Below, piece after piece: positions 3,238 to 11,309 of a DNA stretch of 24,440 nt (positions within the stretch are counted from its first letter, which is position 1; each line of letters starts with the position of its first letter). This DNA comes from a virus (lineage: Duplodnaviria; Heunggongvirae; Uroviricota; Caudoviricetes). The notes under the pieces were generated by a model, which did not search any database, was not told where the DNA came from, and saw only the letters and a program-made list of their open reading frames with translations. The stretch lies in the IMG/VR virus record IMGVR_UViG_2585427750_000026, one strand, 5' to 3'. The position numbers and the translations under genes were made by a program.

Positions 3238-3509
3238 GTATTCGTATTGAAATTGGCGAACGTTATGTCGTTACCAGTGACAGCTTTCAGTTTATTCTCC
3301 ACGAGAAAAAGAGAGCGGAAAGCGGTAAAAACGCCGGTCAGGAATGGCTGGCGGTGGTTGGTTATTACCCGAAATTAGGCCAGCTCGTTTCCGGCCTGAT
3401 GCATCACGATATTCTGACCGGAAGCGCAAAATCTTTTGCTGATTTAAACGCGCAGGTTGAGCAACTCAGCAAGCGTTGTTCAGAGGCTTTTGGCTCATAT
3501 GGCCGTTAA
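3234..3509 (+). CDS. Hypothetical early protein (P2 orf83 position)
   Basis: 91-aa ORF, ATGA overlap with the upstream ORF; overlaps the start of gene A by 11 nt. Confidence 0.4.
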   Translation: MSIRIEIGERYVVTSDSFQFILHEKKRAESGKNAGQEWLAVVGYYPKLGQLVSGLMHHDILTGSAKSFADLNAQVEQLSKRCSEAFGSYGR

Positions 3510-5784
3510 AGCCTCCGGGCGTTTTGTCCCTCCGTCAGCATTTACCGCAGGCACCGGTAAGGCGTTTACCGGTGCTTATGCATGGAACGCGCCACGCGAG
3601 GCTGTCGGGCGCGAAAGACCTCTTACACGTGACGAGATGCGTCAGGTGCAAGGTGTTTTATCCACGATTAACCGCCTGCCTTACTTTTTGCGCTCGCTGT
3701 TTACTTCACGCTATGACTACATCCGGCGCAATAAAAGCCCGGTGCACGGGTTTTATTTCCTCACATCTACTTTTCAGCGTCGTTTATGGCCGCGCATTGA
3801 GCGTGTGAATCAGCGCCATGAAATGAACACCGACGCGTCGTTGCTGTTTCTGGCAGAGCGTGACCACTATGCGCGCCTGCCGGGAATGAATGACAAGGAG
3901 CTGAAAAAGTTTGCCGCCCGTATCTCATCGCAGCTTTTCATGATGTATGAGGAACTCTGCGATGCATGGGTTGATGCGCATGGTGAAAAAGAATCGCTGT
4001 TTACGGATGAGGCGCAGGCTCACCTGTATGGTCATGTTGCTGGCGCTGCACGTGCTTTCAATATTTCCCCGCTCTACTGGAAAAAATACCGTAAAGGACA
4101 GATGACCACGAGGCAGGCATATTCTGCCATTGCCCGCCTGTTTAACGATGAGTGGTGGACTCATCAGCTTAAAGGCCAGCGTATGCGCTGGCATGAGGCG
4201 TTACTGATAGCTGTCGGGGAGGTCAATAAAGACCGTTCTCCTTATGCCAGTAAACACGCCATTCGTGATGTGCGTGCGCGCCGCCAGGCAAATCTGGAAT
4301 TTCTTAAATCGTGTGACCTTGAAAACAGGGAAACCGGCGAGCGCATCGACCTTATCAGTAAGGTGATGGGCAGTATTTCTAATCCTGAAATTCGCCGGAT
4401 GGAGCTGATGAACACCATTGCCGGTATTGAGCGTTACGCCGCCGCAGAGGGTGATGTGGGGATGTTTATCACGCTGACCGCGCCGTCAAAGTATCACCCG
4501 ACACGTCAGGTCGGAAAAGGCGAAAGTAAAACCGTTCAGCTTAATCACGGCTGGAACGATGAGGCATTTAATCCAAAGGATGCGCAGCGTTATCTCTGCC
4601 GTATCTGGAGCCTGATGCGCACGGCATTCAAGGATAATGATTTACAGGTCTACGGTTTGCGAGTCGTCGAGCCACACCACGACGGAACGCCGCACTGGCA
4701 TATGATGCTTTTTTGTCATCCACGCCAGCGTAACCAGATTATCGAAATCATGCGTCGCTATGCGCTCAAAGAGGATGGCGACGAAAGAGGAGCCGCGCGA
4801 AACCGTTTTCAGGCAAAACACCTTAACCGGGGCGGTGCTGCGGGATATATCGCGAAATACATTTCAAAAAACATCGACGGCTATGCACTGGATGGTCAGC
4901 TCGATAACGACACCGGCAGGCCGCTGAAAGACACTGCAGCGGCTGTTACCGCATGGGCGTCAACGTGGCGCATCCCGCAATTTAAAACGGTTGGCCTGCC
5001 GACAATGGGGGCTTACCGTGAACTACGCAAATTGCCTCGCGGCGTCAGCATTGCTGATGAGTTTGACGAGCGCGTCGAGGCTGCACGCGCCGCCGCAGAC
5101 AGTGGTGATTTTGCGCTGTATATCAGCGCGCAGGGCGGGGCAAATGTCCCGCGCGATTGTCAGACTGTCAGGGTCGCCCGTAGTCTGTCGGATGACGTTA
5201 ACGAGTACGAGGAAGAAGTCGAGAGAGTGGTCGGCATTTACGCGCCGCATCTCGGCGCGCGTCATATTCATATCACCAGAACGACGGACTGGCGCATTGT
5301 GCCGAAAGTTCCAGTCGTTGAGCCTTTGACTTTAAAAAGCGGCATCGCCGCGCCTCGGAGTCCTGTCAATAACTGTGGAAAGCTCACTGGTGGTGATACT
5401 TCGTTACCGGCTCCCACGCCTTCTGAGCACGCCGCAGCCGTGCTTAATCTGGTTGATGACGGTGTTATCGAATGGAATGACCCGGAGGTCGTGAGGGCGC
5501 TCAGGGGCGCATTAAAACACGGCCTGCGAACGCCAAACCGTCAGCAAAGAAACGGAAGCCCGTTAAAACCGCATGAAATTGCGCCATCGGCCAGACTGAC
5601 CCGGTCGGAAAGAATGCAAATTACCCGTATCCGCGTTGACCTTGCTCAGAACGGTATCAGGCCGCAGCGATGGGAGCTTGAGGCGCTGGCGCGTGGCGCG
5701 ATCGTAAATTATGACGGGAAAAAATTCACGTATCCGGTCGCTGATGAGTGGCCGGGATTCTCAACAGTAATGGAGTGGACATAA
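3499..5784 (+). CDS. A: Rolling-circle replication initiation endonuclease gpA
   Basis: 761 aa from the ATG at 3499 (MAVKASGRF...), matching the P2 A N-terminus as I recall it. Contains the HxH-type motif (PHWHMMLF) and candidate catalytic tyrosines (GYIAKYISKN). The ORF-track start at 3457 is an upstream in-frame alternative. Confidence 0.9.
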   Translation: MAVKASGRFVPPSAFTAGTGKAFTGAYAWNAPREAVGRERPLTRDEMRQVQGVLSTINRLPYFLRSLFTSRYDYIRRNKSPVHGFYFLTSTFQRRLWPRIERVNQRHEMNTDASLLFLAERDHYARLPGMNDKELKKFAARISSQLFMMYEELCDAWVDAHGEKESLFTDEAQAHLYGHVAGAARAFNISPLYWKKYRKGQMTTRQAYSAIARLFNDEWWTHQLKGQRMRWHEALLIAVGEVNKDRSPYASKHAIRDVRARRQANLEFLKSCDLENRETGERIDLISKVMGSISNPEIRRMELMNTIAGIERYAAAEGDVGMFITLTAPSKYHPTRQVGKGESKTVQLNHGWNDEAFNPKDAQRYLCRIWSLMRTAFKDNDLQVYGLRVVEPHHDGTPHWHMMLFCHPRQRNQIIEIMRRYALKEDGDERGAARNRFQAKHLNRGGAAGYIAKYISKNIDGYALDGQLDNDTGRPLKDTAAAVTAWASTWRIPQFKTVGLPTMGAYRELRKLPRGVSIADEFDERVEAARAAADSGDFALYISAQGGANVPRDCQTVRVARSLSDDVNEYEEEVERVVGIYAPHLGARHIHITRTTDWRIVPKVPVVEPLTLKSGIAAPRSPVNNCGKLTGGDTSLPAPTPSEHAAAVLNLVDDGVIEWNDPEVVRALRGALKHGLRTPNRQQRNGSPLKPHEIAPSARLTRSERMQITRIRVDLAQNGIRPQRWELEALARGAIVNYDGKKFTYPVADEWPGFSTVMEWT

Positions 5785-6236
5785 TGGCAAAAATTCACGA
5801 GGTAAAGCTGCACGCAAAATATTTCGACCTTGTGCTGGAAGGAAAGAAACGCGCAGAGTTTCGGAAAAATGACCGTAATTATGAGCGCGGGGACACGTTG
5901 ATTTTGCATGAATGGGTGCAGGGTGTGTATACGGGGCGAAAGGTTGAAGCCCGGATAACAGATGTTACTGACCTGTCAGACTGGCTGGAAGATTATGTCT
6001 TGCTAAGTATTGAGCTGCTTAATACAGGTGCATATGAGATTGTGAACTGGAAAGAACTTAGTGAGCGTGGTCTGGTATTCAGAATTAATCATGAAATTAT
6101 GCATCAGCTCGGCCTTGCTGTTATGTATGAACCAGAGACGGGGATGTCTGGCGGGGCAATGGTTGCCACGGATGGAGCATGGAACTATTCAGATGAACAG
6201 ATGGAGCGTGCACAGCAAAACGGGTGGCTTGGATAA
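5784..6236 (+). CDS. ASCH/DUF3850-like protein (extended orf91-like)
   Basis: 150 aa from the ATG at 5784 (TAATG overlap with the A stop). N-terminus EVKLHAKYFDLVLEGKKRAEFRKNDRNYERGDTLILHEW resembles the ASCH-like DUF3850 fold by pattern. Lower GC than the replication genes. Confidence 0.5.
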   Translation: MAKIHEVKLHAKYFDLVLEGKKRAEFRKNDRNYERGDTLILHEWVQGVYTGRKVEARITDVTDLSDWLEDYVLLSIELLNTGAYEIVNWKELSERGLVFRINHEIMHQLGLAVMYEPETGMSGGAMVATDGAWNYSDEQMERAQQNGWLG

Positions 6237-6469
6237 TGCACAGAATGCCAGGCGAGATACCGCACCATAAAACTAAAAATATCAAGCTGATGGCTGTTGT
6301 TCACCGTCTACAGCAGATTATGGTCAACGAAAATCTGACGCCCGATGAGCTGGTCGGGTGTGCCGAAATAGTCCGGGATAATTACAGACGGTTTAACGAT
6401 ATCAGTAGACAGAAAAGTGAGACATTTCGGCCAGCTAACATGCCAAAACCACCACCACGCAGGCCGTAG
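6236..6469 (+). CDS. Hypothetical small protein
   Basis: 77-aa ORF, translationally coupled (TAATG) to the preceding gene; proline/basic-rich C-terminus; no recognisable domain. Confidence 0.35.
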   Translation: MHRMPGEIPHHKTKNIKLMAVVHRLQQIMVNENLTPDELVGCAEIVRDNYRRFNDISRQKSETFRPANMPKPPPRRP

Positions 6470-6702
6470 AGAACCCCGCTATCCATGAAACTTGCTTTCA
6501 GGGAGGCGGGTTGAATAAAAGTAGCTTTGCCGAAAAGTCTAACTATCTTGGTTTTTGCTGGTCCAAAGTTAATAAACAAACCTGCTTGTATGCAGCGGGT
6601 TTCCATATTGCCGTTTCGTATGCATGCCGCACCGTGCAAAGAGTATGAAAAATGTTATGGAAAAACGGGGATTAGTGTTATATTAATGGCTGAAAAGTGG
6701 TC

Positions 6703-6767
6703 TTGACACAGGTTGTTGTGTGTGGTAAGGCTGTATCCCTTTGGCATTCAAAATGTAGGAGGCAACC
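6703..6767 (+). promoter_or_regulatory. Putative promoter and strong RBS for the peptidase gene
   Basis: TTGACA at 6703..6708, AT-rich stretch upstream (TTATATTAAT 6678..6687), and Shine-Dalgarno AGGAGG at 6757..6762, 5 nt before ATG 6768. The -10 element is not clear-cut. Confidence 0.35.
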
Positions 6768-7244
6768 ATGAGCATCGCAGCTAAAAATCTGCTTAATCGC
6801 TATTGGGATCGCCGACTACCTGTCGATCCGTTTAAGCTCGCCGCAGCGTGGGGTGCAAGAGTGGAGCCGCTCAGGGAACCAGCGAATGGGTTAAGTGGTT
6901 CAGCCGTAATAGAAAATGGCATACCTTATATTTATTTTAACTCAAATGAACATTACAACCGCCAACGCTTTACTGTAGCGCATGAGCTCGGTCATCATGT
7001 TTTAGGGCATACTCAAGACGGAGAATATCATCGCGATATTGTAGGCAACTACTCAACTGGCATCCGTGATTATCGTGAAATAGAAGCTAACCAGTTTGCT
7101 GCAGAGCTATTGATGCCGGAAGAGGCCATTCGTCAACTAGTGTCGCGTATAGGCGTTGATAGTACATTACGTTTGGCAAACATATTTAACGTTTCTGAGG
7201 CTGCTATGCACTGGCGTCTTAAAGCGTTGGGTATGGCTTACTAA
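6768..7244 (+). CDS. ImmA/IrrE-family (Peptidase_M78 / COG2856-like) zinc metallopeptidase
   Basis: 158 aa with HEXXH (AHELGHHVLGH) followed by the downstream glutamate motif EANQFAAELLMP typical of ImmA/IrrE peptidases. No fused HTH domain. Strong RBS. Confidence 0.75.
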   Translation: MSIAAKNLLNRYWDRRLPVDPFKLAAAWGARVEPLREPANGLSGSAVIENGIPYIYFNSNEHYNRQRFTVAHELGHHVLGHTQDGEYHRDIVGNYSTGIRDYREIEANQFAAELLMPEEAIRQLVSRIGVDSTLRLANIFNVSEAAMHWRLKALGMAY

Positions 7245-7274
7245 TACCCTCTTTAACTTTTTTCAAACCGGTTT

Positions 7275-7311
7275 AAAATCACCATTATTTTATTAATAAT
7301 GGTGATTTTTT
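7275..7311 (+). promoter_or_regulatory. Perfect 15-bp inverted repeat (hairpin) with T-run immediately upstream of the membrane-protein start
   Basis: AAAATCACCATTATT (7275..7289), loop TTATT, AATAATGGTGATTTT (7295..7309), then TT and ATG at 7312. The right arm contains the only SD-like sequence (GGTGA) for the downstream gene. Confidence 0.5.
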
Positions 7312-7932
7312 ATGGCAGATATCGACCTCTCTGGCCAATCTCCGGCTCAGTCTTCCCAGCCATCCAAAACTTCAACCTTTCCACATCCACCTAGCGATGC
7401 CGATCCAGATATTTTGTTACGTAGAGAAGTGCATGATGGCATGGAAAGGAGGGGAATGCGCTTAGTTTTGTCAGCCACCGTACTTTTTTTTGCCATAATG
7501 TTTTTATGGAAAGGTCTGTATTTCGCTCTCGAAGTCGGAAATGGTTTGCTTGCGGCTAAAAGTAGTATTGTTTCAGCGTTGGCACAAAATGATGAAAAGG
7601 TTGTTTGCGAACCTAAAACTAAATGTATTGAGCCTAAACAGCAGACAATGAAACCTACAGAAAAAACTCCCGGCATGTCAACAAAGGGTGATAGAGTAAT
7701 GCCAAACTTATCTACAGATTGGCTTTCTGCAAGTTCGCTAATTGCCATAGTCGCTTTCATCCTTGGTGTTGGCTTGACGTTAATCCTTACCCTACTTAAG
7801 TCCGCTTTTCATCATCCGACTGATAAAAATCTCAATGAGCAAAAAACAACAGATGCGATTGAGTTGGCGACTCCCTTAAGTGAGTTAATCGCGGGTATTA
7901 TTAATTATCTCAAGAGCAAATTTTCTAAATAA
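7312..7932 (+). CDS. Two-transmembrane-helix membrane protein, unknown function (candidate effector)
   Basis: 206 aa with two hydrophobic helices (LVLSATVLFFAIMFLWKGLYFAL and LIAIVAFILGVGLTLILTLL) separated by a hydrophilic loop of about 70 aa containing two Cys. Lower GC than the phage core. Confidence 0.6.
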   Translation: MADIDLSGQSPAQSSQPSKTSTFPHPPSDADPDILLRREVHDGMERRGMRLVLSATVLFFAIMFLWKGLYFALEVGNGLLAAKSSIVSALAQNDEKVVCEPKTKCIEPKQQTMKPTEKTPGMSTKGDRVMPNLSTDWLSASSLIAIVAFILGVGLTLILTLLKSAFHHPTDKNLNEQKTTDAIELATPLSELIAGIINYLKSKFSK

Positions 7933-8141: not shown

Positions 8142-8160
8142 GGCGAGGCGGGGAAAGCAC
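8142..8160 (+). other. cos: cos cohesive-end site (19 nt)
   Basis: GGCGAGGCGGGGAAAGCAC matches the 19-nt P2 cohesive end as I recall it, and sits at the expected position between the accessory region and gene Q. Confidence 0.7.
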
Positions 8161-8329: not shown

Positions 8330-9364
8330 TCAGCCGTTGTCAGTGTCCAGTGAGTAGTTTTTAAAGCGGATGACCTCCTGACCGAGCCAGCCGTTTATCT
8401 CGCGGATCCTGTCCTGTAACGGGATAAGCTCATTGCGGACAAAGACCTTTGCCACTTTCTCAATATCACCCAGCGACCCGACGTTCTCCGGCTTGCCGCC
8501 CATCAACTGAAAGGGGATGCGGTGCGCGTCCAGCAGGTCAGCGGCGCTGGCTTTTTTGATATTAAAAAAATCGTCCTTCGTTGCCACTTCACTGAGCGGG
8601 ATAATTTTAATGCCGTCGGCTTTCCCCTGCGGGGCATAGAGAAACAGATTTTTAAAGTTGTTGCGGCCTTTCGACTTGACCATGTTTTCGCGAAGCATTT
8701 CGATATCGTTGCGATCCTGCACGGCATCGGTAACGTACATGATATATCCGGCATGAGCGCCGTTTTCGTAATACTTGCGGCGGAACAGCGTGGCCGACTC
8801 ATTCAGCCAGGCAGAATTAAGGGCGCTGAGATATTCCGGCAGGCCGTACAGCTCCTGATTAATATCCGGCTCCAGCAGGTGAAACACGGAGCCGGGTGCG
8901 AAGGCTGTCGGCTCGTTGAAGGACGGCACCCACCAGTAAACATCCTCCTCCACACCTCGGCGGGGATATTTTGCCGGTGAGGTTTCCAGTCTGATGACCT
9001 TACCGGTGGTGCTGTAACGCTTTTCCAGAAACGCATTACCGAACACCAGAAAATCCAGCACAAAGCGGCTGAAATCCTGCTGGGAAAGCCACGGATGCGG
9101 GATAAATGTCGAGGCCAGAATATTACGTTTGACGTAAATCGGTGAGCTGTGATGCACGGCAGCACGCAGGCTTTTTGCCAGACCGGTAAAGCTGATCGGT
9201 GGCTCATACCATCTGCCGTTACTGATGCACTCGACGTAATCCAGAATGTCACGGCGGTCGAGTACCGGCACCGGCTCACCAAAGGTGAATGCTTCCATTT
9301 TCGGGGCGCTGGCGGTCATTGTTTTTGCCGCAGGTTGCGGTGTTTTCCCTTTTTTCTTGCTCAT
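8330..9364 (-). CDS. Q: Portal protein gpQ
   Basis: 344 aa, the same length and position as P2 Q; translationally coupled to P (TGATG on the minus strand). Confidence 0.9.
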   Translation of the reverse strand: MSKKKGKTPQPAAKTMTASAPKMEAFTFGEPVPVLDRRDILDYVECISNGRWYEPPISFTGLAKSLRAAVHHSSPIYVKRNILASTFIPHPWLSQQDFSRFVLDFLVFGNAFLEKRYSTTGKVIRLETSPAKYPRRGVEEDVYWWVPSFNEPTAFAPGSVFHLLEPDINQELYGLPEYLSALNSAWLNESATLFRRKYYENGAHAGYIMYVTDAVQDRNDIEMLRENMVKSKGRNNFKNLFLYAPQGKADGIKIIPLSEVATKDDFFNIKKASAADLLDAHRIPFQLMGGKPENVGSLGDIEKVAKVFVRNELIPLQDRIREINGWLGQEVIRFKNYSLDTDNG

Positions 9365-11136
9365 CAGTAAAACTCCAGAATGGTGGATGTCAGCGGGGTG
9401 CTGATACCGGCGGTGAGTGGCTCATTTAACAGGGCGTGCATGGTCGCCCAGGCGAGGTCGGCGTGGCTGGCTTCCTCGCTGCGGCTGGCCTCATAGGTGG
9501 CGCTGCGTCCGCTGCTGGTCATGGTCTTGCGGATAGCCATAAACGAGCTGGTGATGTCGGTGGCGCTGACGTCATATTCCAGACAGCCACGGCGGATAAC
9601 GTCTTTTGCCTTGAGCACCATTGCGGTTTTCATTTCCGGCGTGTAGCGGATGTCGCGCGCGGCGGGATAGAACGAGCGCACGAGCTGGAACACGCCGACA
9701 CCGAGGCCGGTGGCATCAATACCGATGTATTCAACGTTATATTTTTCGGTGAGTTTGCGGATGGATTCCGCCTGAGTGGCAAAGTCCATGCCTTTCCACT
9801 GGTGACGCTCAAGTATTCTGAATTTGCCACCGGCCACCACCGGCGGTGCCAGCACCACGCATCCGGCGCTGTCGCCACGGTGTGACGGGTCGTAACCAAT
9901 CCATACCGGGCGGGAGCCGAACGGATTGGCGGCAAACGGCGCATAGTCTTCCCATTCTTCCAGCGTGTCGACCATGCAGCGTTGCAGCTCCTCGAACGGG
10001 AACACCGACGCCTTGTCGTCAACAAATTCACACATGAACAGGTTTTTAAAATCGTCGGCGCTGTTTTCACGTTTGAGCTGCTCAATGTCGAACAGCGTGC
10101 AGCCACCTTTCAGGGCGTCCTCAATGGTGACAATCTGCCGCCACTGGCCGTCCGCACAGAGAAGCCCACCGGCAAGGGCGTTATGACTGACGTCGATTTC
10201 CACGCGTTCGGCGGCGCTGGCGCGTCCCCGGTTGAACAGTTCACCTGACCAGAACGGGTAGGCGTCGTGCGCCAGCGTGGACGGGGTGGAGAAATAGGTC
10301 GAACGCAGGTGACTCTGTGAGGCCATACCTGATGCCACCTTACGCAGTACCTGAAAATTCGGGATCCAGAAAATCTCGTCGACGTACAGGTCGCCGTTAT
10401 GGCTCTGTGCGGTGTTGGAGTTGGTGCCGAGAAAAATTAGTTTTGCGCCGTTATTGCCCAGGACAATCGGGTCACCGGTCAGGTCAACGTCAACCAGACG
10501 GGCAAAGGCGATGATGTATTCGCGGAACACATACGCCTGCGTTTTACTGGCCGACAGAAAAATCTGGTTATGGCCGGTTTTCAGGGCGCGCAGCAGCGCC
10601 TCGCGGGAAAAATAAAACGTTGCGCCAATCTGGCGGGATTTCAGTATATCGCGGATGCGGTGCTCAAGCCCGGCGCGATACCAGTGCAACTGATAGTCGA
10701 AAGACTGCTCAAAGAAAATCTGCTCCAGCTTTTCGATGGCTTCGTCACTGAAAAAATTCTTTTTCGGTTTGCGACGCCCGCCTTTGTTGCGGTTAGCGAC
10801 GTTCGGATTAAGGTCTGCCTCGTTGCCGGTCTGACTGTAGCGGTTGACCCGCGCCAGTCGTTCAATCTGGCGTCCCAGCAGGTCAATTTCCTTGAAGTCA
10901 CCGCCGGTTTTCTGCGGTTTGATGATGAGCTGGGTCAGCCGCGCTTCCAGGCTCATTTCGACACGGCTGATGGGGGCAACGCTGTCCCAGCCGTCGCGCT
11001 GTTTCCAGCTCTGCACCGTCGGGCGTTTCATCTGCAACATGGCGGCAATCTGCGGCACGGAAACCCCCTGCCAGTACAGCAGCGCCGCCTGCCGACGCGG
11101 GTCGTGTAAAAGAGTGGTGTCTGTGGTGATGGTCAT
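9364..11136 (-). CDS. P: Terminase large (ATPase) subunit gpP
   Basis: 590 aa from the ATG at 11136 (MTITTDTTLL...), matching P2 P length. The ORF track's longer ORF to 11166 begins at an upstream alternative start. Confidence 0.9.
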   Translation of the reverse strand: MTITTDTTLLHDPRRQAALLYWQGVSVPQIAAMLQMKRPTVQSWKQRDGWDSVAPISRVEMSLEARLTQLIIKPQKTGGDFKEIDLLGRQIERLARVNRYSQTGNEADLNPNVANRNKGGRRKPKKNFFSDEAIEKLEQIFFEQSFDYQLHWYRAGLEHRIRDILKSRQIGATFYFSREALLRALKTGHNQIFLSASKTQAYVFREYIIAFARLVDVDLTGDPIVLGNNGAKLIFLGTNSNTAQSHNGDLYVDEIFWIPNFQVLRKVASGMASQSHLRSTYFSTPSTLAHDAYPFWSGELFNRGRASAAERVEIDVSHNALAGGLLCADGQWRQIVTIEDALKGGCTLFDIEQLKRENSADDFKNLFMCEFVDDKASVFPFEELQRCMVDTLEEWEDYAPFAANPFGSRPVWIGYDPSHRGDSAGCVVLAPPVVAGGKFRILERHQWKGMDFATQAESIRKLTEKYNVEYIGIDATGLGVGVFQLVRSFYPAARDIRYTPEMKTAMVLKAKDVIRRGCLEYDVSATDITSSFMAIRKTMTSSGRSATYEASRSEEASHADLAWATMHALLNEPLTAGISTPLTSTILEFY

Positions 11137-11309
11137 GAATACCTCGCCGTGATGAATACACGGCAAGGCTACTGAGTCGCGCCCCGCGATTCGCTAAGGT
11201 GCTGTTGTGTCAGTGATAAGCCATCCGGGACTGATGGCGGAGGATGCGCATCGTCGGGAAACTGATGCCGACATGTGACTCCTCTAATCACTATTCAGGA
11301 CTCCTGACA

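Follow-up and report, generated by a model that had tools for sequence, protein, structure and literature searches.

The prophage stretch held as IMG/VR record IMGVR_UViG_2585427750_000026 (24,440 nucleotides, referred to here as the window) is P2-like and carries, between its replication gene gpA and its portal gene Q, a two-gene cassette read on the + strand. The first gene (6768–7244) encodes a soluble 158-residue zinc metallopeptidase of the ImmA/IrrE type (Peptidase_M78) and the second (7312–7932) a 206-residue inner-membrane protein with two transmembrane (TM) segments; both open reading frames (ORFs) lie where an earlier sequence-only reading of this DNA had placed them. The two genes are strictly paired, move as a unit, behave as cargo and are separated by a conserved intergenic RNA hairpin (7275–7311, + strand). 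We tentatively favour, with confidence that stops somewhat short of even, the view that the membrane protein is a potentially toxic effector controlled by the peptidase, expressed in the lysogen and serving abortive infection, exclusion or a toxin–antitoxin (TA)-like function.

The membrane protein was used to fetch 24 loci, and in all 24 the M78 gene lies directly upstream of the membrane gene, with both ORFs intact throughout. Among 5426 complete Escherichia coli genomes each gene was found in 50, at 51 places; because the counts agree for both genomes and places, neither gene seems to occur alone. Two of those 50 genomes carry the very allele seen in the window. The P2-like portal gene was found at 1932 places in 1662 E. 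coli genomes, as against 51 places for the pair. Since the pair thus occupies fewer than 3% of P2-like prophages, it is variable cargo and not a core component; the sequence-only reading had taken it for variable cargo of the A-to-cos slot, and the case it raised against itself, that the genes are core to all P2-like phages, does not hold. Fourteen IMG/VR contigs carry the pair in the A-to-Q interval, including phages with gpA only 31–37% identical. Three further settings lie outside P2-like phages: in Pectobacterium the pair occupies an end of an HK97-like prophage, in Enterobacter it follows a RepL-like gene on a plasmid, and in Serratia it neighbours RmrTA in a chromosomal island. It is present in 3 of 50,697 records of isolated phages and on 3 of 72,556 plasmids. 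The pair is thus a self-contained, horizontally mobile unit. A mobile two-gene operon of non-uniform distribution is one of the features by which type II TA systems are recognised, and the pair has it; a DNA-binding domain, as used in type II autoregulation, was not found in either protein by Pfam search.

The 158-residue product matches Peptidase_M78 (PF06114) with an E-value of 8e-23 and 81 bits against a cutoff of 22, and phrog_87 (metallo-protease) with an E-value of 1e-32, which bears out its earlier assignment to the ImmA/IrrE group. The HELGH motif corresponds to H72-E73-x-x-H76, and H72, E73, H76 and E104 are invariant in alignments of 23 and of 38 peptidase sequences. The third zinc ligand is the conserved E104 and not E106 of 'EANQF'. 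An AlphaFold2 (AF2) model has a predicted local distance difference test score (pLDDT) of 88.8 and is confident save for the loop 83–100. The top Foldseek matches of this model are PprI, CapP and IrrE (E-values 2e-6 to 4e-5), with TM-scores of 0.55–0.64 on the query and around 0.4 on the target, indicating that only the N-terminal part of each target is matched. The conserved residues and the modelled fold suggest that the enzyme is catalytically competent.

The peptidase comprises the catalytic domain and a helix-turn-helix (HTH)-like tail only, with no fused HTH. Domain searches gave no HTH match in the peptidase or in neighbouring ORFs, in agreement with its earlier description as a standalone enzyme, and no TM segment is predicted (maximum 19-residue hydropathy 0.81). 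The best PADLOC match is capP (E-value 4e-31), covering only positions 9–151 of the 242 in that profile; the other PADLOC matches (RmrA, PDC-M69B and PD-Lambda-2_B) likewise concern the peptidase domain only, and the score against the NCBIfam spr1629 antitoxin family is 41.8 bits, far under the cutoff of 335. Judged by capP profile coverage and by Foldseek, the GAF domain is absent. H88, the counterpart of the CapP switch cysteine in the alignment, is not conserved, and there is no cysteine; a 'histidine switch' at H88 was considered and rejected on the same ground. With neither GAF domain nor switch cysteine, sensing of single-stranded DNA (ssDNA) in the manner of CapP and IrrE appears unlikely.

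The signals ahead of the peptidase gene suggest that it is well expressed. A promoter-like region at 6676–6732 (+ strand) comprises an extended −10-like element, TGTTATATT, at 6676–6684, a TTGACA at 6703–6708 and, after a 17-nucleotide spacer, TAAGGC at 6726–6731. This block is kept in four loci, namely the window, L002, L003 and the Pectobacterium locus L008, and is not kept in L004 or L006. A scan for consensus promoters listed no site at 6676–6732. The proposal that the cassette has its own promoter is thus supported by the conservation of TTGACA and TGTTATATT and not by the scan, and the region may act as a promoter. The strong ribosome-binding site claimed for the gene is clearly present: a Shine–Dalgarno (SD) sequence, AGGAGG, at 6757–6762 (+ strand), 5 nucleotides before the peptidase ATG, is invariant across loci. 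The surrounding string GTAGGAGGC(A)ACCATG is kept in all six diverse loci that were aligned, one of them lacking one A, and the start codon stands in an almost invariant GTAGGAGGCAACC-ATG.

The second product shows two hydropathy segments, TM1 at about 51–74 and TM2 at about 139–163, consistent with the two-helix protein that had been predicted. Its only family match is phrog_8096, to which no function is assigned; neither Pfam nor NCBIfam gave a match. A structural or lysis protein had been named as the identity that would speak against an effector, and no Pfam or PHROG match to a holin or lysis family was found; in the prophage of the record with the identical allele, lysB and lysC are annotated elsewhere and not beside the pair. 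Only 54 members were recovered in a full HMMER pass over 1.84 billion representative sequences, and a scan of species-representative genomes with the profile of the TM protein gave 19 pattern matches, none of which was confirmed.

An alignment of 34 homologues locates the conserved parts of this protein. The N-terminus begins with M-x-x-[IV]-D-L-S-G and continues as a disordered Pro/Gln-rich tail of variable length that cannot be aligned; an ERRxMR juxtamembrane motif then precedes TM1. Two cysteines of the loop between the helices, C99 and C105, are invariant in all 34 enterobacterial sequences aligned; the loop also has a low-complexity spacer that varies. TM2 is very conserved (D-W-L-S-A-S-S-L-I-A-I-V-A-F-I-L-G-V-G-L-T-L) and is followed by HPTD and a C-terminal amphipathic helix running from ELATPLSELI to KFSK. 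The remainder is hypervariable. Paired cysteines in the loop, together with basic residues before TM1, suggest an N-in/C-in topology. AF2 with the 34-sequence alignment places helices at 32–94, 134–166 and 187–204, with a pLDDT of 59. The tail motif, in the form D-[LFY]-S-[GA], occurs in 45 of 81 tailed homologues against 4.4 expected from shuffled tails, the counts not being phylogenetically independent; it is also found in the very divergent membrane proteins of Pseudomonas and Alcaligenes.

The gene model differs from that in several database entries and in Rousset et al., where translation begins at the internal M49 behind GGAAAGGAGG, taken as a ribosome-binding site. The codons for ERR vary synonymously among loci (AGG AGG, CGG AGA, CGT CGA and others), and the motif is thus selected as protein; the internal start was rejected for this reason. 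Because ERR is kept upstream of the internal methionine through synonymous codons, the sequence evidence indicates that the ATG at 7312 is the real start and that the N-terminal tail is translated. An antisense ORF of 137 residues lies inside the membrane gene (7347–7760, − strand); it has a 152-residue counterpart in L003 and is truncated to 67 residues in L002, for which reason it is probably not a gene.

The hairpin between the two genes consists of an A-tract and 5′ arm (7275–7289), a loop (7290–7294) and a 3′ arm (7295–7309), with a run of six T (7306–7311) that abuts the ATG at 7312; its sequence is AAAATCACCATTATT-loop-AATAATGGTGATTTT. The minimum free energy is −19.7 kcal/mol (z-score −4.36). 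It is seen in every locus of the set (L002–L024) and also in L025 (4524–4558) and L037 (3468–3500). There are 13 distinct versions, all of which fold, built on three unrelated stem sequences (TCACCATTAT, GCCACC and GCCACT). Across these versions 97% of cells pair, and 6 of the 14 pairs show compensatory changes on both sides. At most one in 500 shuffles reaches the observed values, and controls with a slid register are almost without such changes. Conservation does not extend into the flanking intergenic sequence.

The 3′ arm holds GGTGAT, complementary to the 3′ end of 16S rRNA, and this is the only SD-like element before the membrane ATG; no canonical ribosome-binding site lies ahead of ATG 7312. 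The hairpin thus resembles a terminator combined with a trap for the ribosome-binding site. Many transcripts would stop here and the rest would be poorly translated, giving much peptidase and little membrane protein. Two other assignments were rejected. Rfam holds no family for the hairpin, the only match being one to a microRNA that is due to chance (E-value 0.16), and a promoter inside it (TTTAAA-17-AATAAT, giving a leaderless mRNA) is not conserved in other loci.

Short M78 relatives, 45–50% identical to the window peptidase, were looked up in five other settings: the end of a P2/HP1-like prophage in Klebsiella grimontii, lambdoid prophages of Pseudomonas aeruginosa, an Alcaligenes prophage next to int, Desulfovibrio, and the island L037. 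In each the M78 gene is followed, within −8 to +73 nucleotides, by a gene for a 130–239-residue protein with two TM segments and a like layout, in which a disordered tail leads by way of basic residues to TM1 and a loop connects this to TM2, often with a G-V/L-G-L-T-L-like motif, ahead of a C-terminal amphipathic helix. The sequences therefore suggest that the pairing is older than the enterobacterial family. As the periplasmic loop is almost absent in the short Pseudomonas and Desulfovibrio versions, the conserved core is the helical hairpin with its cytosolic ends. The Pseudomonas, Desulfovibrio and Alcaligenes genes nearly touch or overlap, and there is no RNA hairpin between them. In P. 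aeruginosa (L029–L032, 3007–4934) a 170-residue M78 protein and a 135-residue two-TM protein are separated by 14 nucleotides and directly follow an S24-type repressor gene on the same strand. In lambda, rexAB holds this position after the repressor.

The obligate pairing over long evolutionary distances, mobility as a unit, intact active site, conserved cytosolic motifs and covarying expression brake speak for joint action of the two products and for a membrane protein that has to be kept scarce. Since all characterised M78 relatives have a single dedicated protein on which they act, the membrane protein is the likely partner here. The reading we favour draws on these points, on the strict linkage and on the opposition between the invariant AGGAGG and the throttling hairpin, as well as on the location of the genes in an established reservoir of anti-phage systems. 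On this reading the prophage would express the cassette in the lysogen, producing an abundant cytosolic M78 peptidase with a catalytic domain only, and a small N-in/C-in two-helix inner-membrane protein whose synthesis would be very low, as the terminator-like hairpin would bury the only SD-like element against the start codon. The membrane protein would replace the usual HTH repressor as the dedicated partner. By binding or cleaving a conserved cytosolic element of this protein (the N-terminal D-L-S-G, the ERRxMR junction, or the HPTD/ATPLSELI C-terminal tail), the peptidase may switch it between an inert and a membrane-damaging state, resulting in abortive infection or exclusion of an incoming phage, or in TA-like behaviour. 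The protease-gated toxin or abortive-infection mechanism put forward in the sequence-only reading remains plausible as a hypothesis.

Known relatives supply some detail. The cut made by CapP and IrrE falls between a hydrophobic residue and an Arg that follows it, and a helix of the substrate docks on the peptidase domain (PMC13228613). We speculate that the M49-R50 junction and the C-terminal helix are the equivalents of that cut site and docked helix. The toxicity of the membrane protein, its role as a peptidase substrate, the direction of the switch and the anti-phage role are things we infer. An excess of peptidase would fit an 'antitoxin in excess' at least as well as an 'activator'. A broader version, which we regard as doubtful, makes the pair one representative of a widespread and so far unrecognised Proteobacterial class of prophage immunity or TA modules, in which an ImmA-type peptidase has a membrane protein in place of a repressor, cleavage at the disordered tail (at D-L-S-G or Met-Arg) gates a two-helix membrane-disrupting effector, and the hairpin serves as a safety catch. 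If such a class exists, it would amount to a minimal gasdermin-like 'protease plus pore' logic assembled from unrelated parts.

The sequence-only reading did not recognise the pairing; it had in fact been catalogued and tried. The gpA–gpQ interval is a hotspot with 1650 arrangements and a reservoir of anti-phage systems (Rousset et al. 2022, PMC9122126). The locus table of that study lists Peptidase_M78 with a hypothetical protein many times at the hotspot, including WP_000119270 (the L003 allele) and WP_001504899 (the window's peptidase, with the ASCH gene), and the allele of E. coli TA280 was cloned with its own promoter into a low-copy plasmid as pFR104, 'Peptidase + TM' (PMC9122126). The family, gene order and A-to-cos slot are those of the window. 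The allele is different: the pFR104 peptidase is 86% and its membrane protein 65% identical to those of the window, and the peptidase is identical to that of OU784750, phage P2_DC1 (L002). The membrane protein was annotated there from the internal methionine with one TM helix, compared with the longer ORF and two TM helices found here, and that study gave the pair no function. No system of an M78 peptidase with a membrane protein is described in the papers on CapP and the cyclic-oligonucleotide-based anti-phage signalling system (CBASS), in the DefensePredictor paper or in the 2026 P2/P4 paper. We thus regard the pair as a catalogued candidate, tested once with a negative outcome, and not as the discovery of a new system; what is new here is how widely the pairing extends, the correction of the gene model, the motif in the tail and the hairpin.

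Several observations weigh against the reading we favour. pFR104 appears only in Table S2B ('additional tested systems'), validated systems being in Table S2A, and it does not count among those found to protect E. coli from the panel of eight phages (PMC9122126). Lysogens of four P2-like phages were also challenged, including DC1 with the pFR104 allele, and protection was reported only for AC1 (PMC9122126). The two genes together are not toxic, given that pFR104 could be cloned. No sensor domain is recognisable in the peptidase. PADLOC gave no match for the membrane protein, and the pair as such is absent from PADLOC-DB v2, in line with the sequence-only reading. The model of the membrane protein shows no structural likeness to known pore formers; at its low confidence (pLDDT 59), Foldseek returned no matches in the PDB. 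That the peptidase cleaves the membrane protein is pure inference. The published negative lowers our confidence in a defence role without removing it. The sequence-only reading had held that the lack of a resistance phenotype would count against it; this is borne out in part, for a relative of the window's pair that went unvalidated on a small panel, and the authors of the study note that so small a panel underestimates the active fraction (PMC9122126).

The negative defence test of a relative is among the points that favour the strongest alternative, a pure addiction or stabilisation module of TA type with no anti-phage role. Here the abundant peptidase would continuously destroy or inactivate a scarce membrane toxin, and loss of the element would free the toxin. 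The gene order and expression ratio resemble an antitoxin encoded first and made in excess, the co-occurrence is strict with no orphan toxin gene, and the pair is found on plasmids and islands. Occurrence on plasmids is, however, very rare (the 3 of 72,556 given above), and the genes are mostly in prophage cargo slots; unlike classical type II systems they include no DNA-binding autoregulator, and nothing points to the peptidase being the less stable of the two products. We consider this explanation unlikely.

The position of the P. aeruginosa pair right after a prophage repressor gene suggests a different role, that of a regulatory protease whose target is not the neighbouring product but, for example, a repressor of the phage or host, as with ImmA, MpaR and IrrE, and with the membrane protein as a tether or sensor that couples an envelope signal to prophage induction or gene expression. 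P2 is classically not SOS-inducible. DC1, a phage with the pair, came from a culture treated with mitomycin C (PMC9122126), which is a very weak hint that the peptidase plays a part in induction. The characterised M78 relatives all cleave transcription regulators (PMC2701414; PMC13228613). Yet across phages whose replication and immunity regions are unrelated, plasmids and chromosomal islands the sole constant partner is the membrane protein and not any repressor. No LexA box (CTGT-N8-ACAG) occurs anywhere in the window, and SOS control of the kind exerted by tum of phage 186 was rejected accordingly. The ssDNA-sensing GAF domain and the switch cysteine are missing, and a tether made far below the level of the enzyme is hard to reconcile with sequestration. 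We hold this role to be distinctly improbable.

At least as improbable, in our judgement, is superinfection exclusion, in which the membrane protein would block DNA entry or the receptor of related phages without cell death, the peptidase serving only to mature it or turn it over. A small inner-membrane protein from prophage cargo slots would suit such a function, the hypervariable loop and tail are as expected for an arms-race surface, and P2-like or temperate phages were scarce in the published panel. In the Pseudomonas and Desulfovibrio versions, however, hardly any periplasmic loop is left, conservation lying in the TM helices and cytosolic motifs, and such strong throttling of expression would be unusual for a stoichiometric blocker. 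The idea that the genes are decaying remnants or chance ORFs, for which one could cite the low-GC accessory region and the heavily degraded prophage in one host of the identical allele (CP135244), is effectively refuted by intact ORFs in all loci, protein-level conservation persisting through synonymous change, invariant catalytic residues, compensatory changes in the RNA hairpin and a pairing kept across phyla-level distances.

Comparison with described systems places the favoured reading of a peptidase-controlled membrane effector in context. ImmA–ImmR, IrrE–DdrO and CapP–CapH share with the pair the catalytic domain, motif and fold of the peptidase, and the arrangement of a dedicated peptidase gene adjoining a dedicated partner gene in mobile elements or defence loci. 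In those systems the partner is an Xre-type HTH protein, whereas here it is a two-TM protein, and HTH, GAF and switch cysteine are all lacking. The GAF and peptidase domains of CapP and IrrE form an ssDNA-binding groove, and a cysteine-switch loop is present in many CapP homologues (PMC13228613). COG2856 peptidases of about 160 residues have been described as partners of Xre HTH proteins (Makarova et al. 2009, PMC2701414), a partner missing from the window pair. RmrTA and the HTH-M78 'antitoxins' (PADLOC RmrA, spr1629) share the M78 domain (E-values 1e-20 to 1e-7); RmrA, in contrast, is an HTH-M78 fusion of around 370 residues paired with a soluble toxin, and the window match covers its peptidase part only. 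Bacterial gasdermin with its protease, lambda RexAB, 'HAD hydrolase + 3TM' and P4 gop-beta-cII are alike in that a prophage or satellite slot contains an enzyme or sensor gene together with one for a small membrane protein, and the P. aeruginosa version shares the slot of RexAB. Family searches and Foldseek revealed no sequence or structural relation of the pair to gasdermin, RexB, Gop or holins.

If active, the pair would be the first case of an ImmA/IrrE-type peptidase with a membrane protein, not a DNA-binding repressor, as its dedicated partner, and the known prophage-borne modules for immunity or addiction would gain a small two-gene member of about 1.2 kb whose relatives range from E. 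coli to Pseudomonas and Desulfovibrio. The case also shows that hotspot candidates failing a small phage panel may keep strong comparative signals such as obligate pairing, mobility and a covarying hairpin.

The surrounding locus is that of a P2-like prophage. The replication endonuclease gene gpA (Phage_GPA, E-value 3e-124) is at 3457–5784. Within its 3′ end starts an ASCH/DUF3850–DUF7415 fusion gene (162 residues, 5748–6236), overlapped by orf81 (81 residues, phrog_11386, 6224–6469), and a 298-nucleotide spacer separates orf81 from the peptidase gene. Around 210 nucleotides past the cassette is a P2-type core, GGCGAGGCGGGGAAAGCAC (8142–8160, no strand assigned), which we take to be the cos overhang as in P2 and which marks a boundary outside the module. 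Portal gene Q (8330–9364) and terminase gene P (9364–11166) follow on the − strand. The GGCGAGGCGGGGAAAGCAC string is also present in P4 and P2 clones of Table S2 of Rousset et al. The A-to-Q interval therefore comprises the ASCH/DUF3850 gene, orf81, the pair and cos, and no old- or tin-like product was detected among its ORFs, as had been noted from the sequence. The description of a low-GC insert between gene A and cos is likewise confirmed: the GC fraction is 0.459 for the M78 gene and 0.415 for the TM gene, against 0.54 for gpA and 0.575 for P (0.54–0.58 across A, Q and P).

In the locus table of Rousset et al. the same ASCH and hypothetical pair precedes other cargo, for example AAA_15 proteins, and for this reason the ASCH gene and orf81 seem to be a separate, semi-conserved piece of the hotspot outside the peptidase module. 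In the DC1 and WP3-S18 alleles (L002, 3983–5117; L003, 3983–5119) the space held in the window by these two genes is a segment of about 1.1 kb, nearly free of ORFs, that separates gpA from the peptidase gene; within it, in the DNA cloned as pFR104, is a strong terminator-like hairpin.

In some alleles a third gene adjoins the pair, encoding 313 residues in E. coli (L003, 6354–7295, − strand) and 306 residues on the Enterobacter plasmid (L006, 6663–7583, + strand). Neither product has a Pfam, NCBIfam or PADLOC match; the two are not constant partners and were rejected as members of the module. In the Serratia loci (L004/L005, 8463–10246) a complete RmrT/RmrA (E-values 9e-59 and 3e-145) lies about 1.8 kb from the pair and, RmrA being an HTH-M78 fusion, two different M78-based modules sit side by side. 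An allele identical to that of the window is located in a heavily decayed prophage between cpxP and fieF (L001, NZ_CP135244, 4410305–4429976), in which gpA has become a pseudogene, the Q/P/capsid region has been lost and ISEc12 has inserted; both cassette genes are intact.

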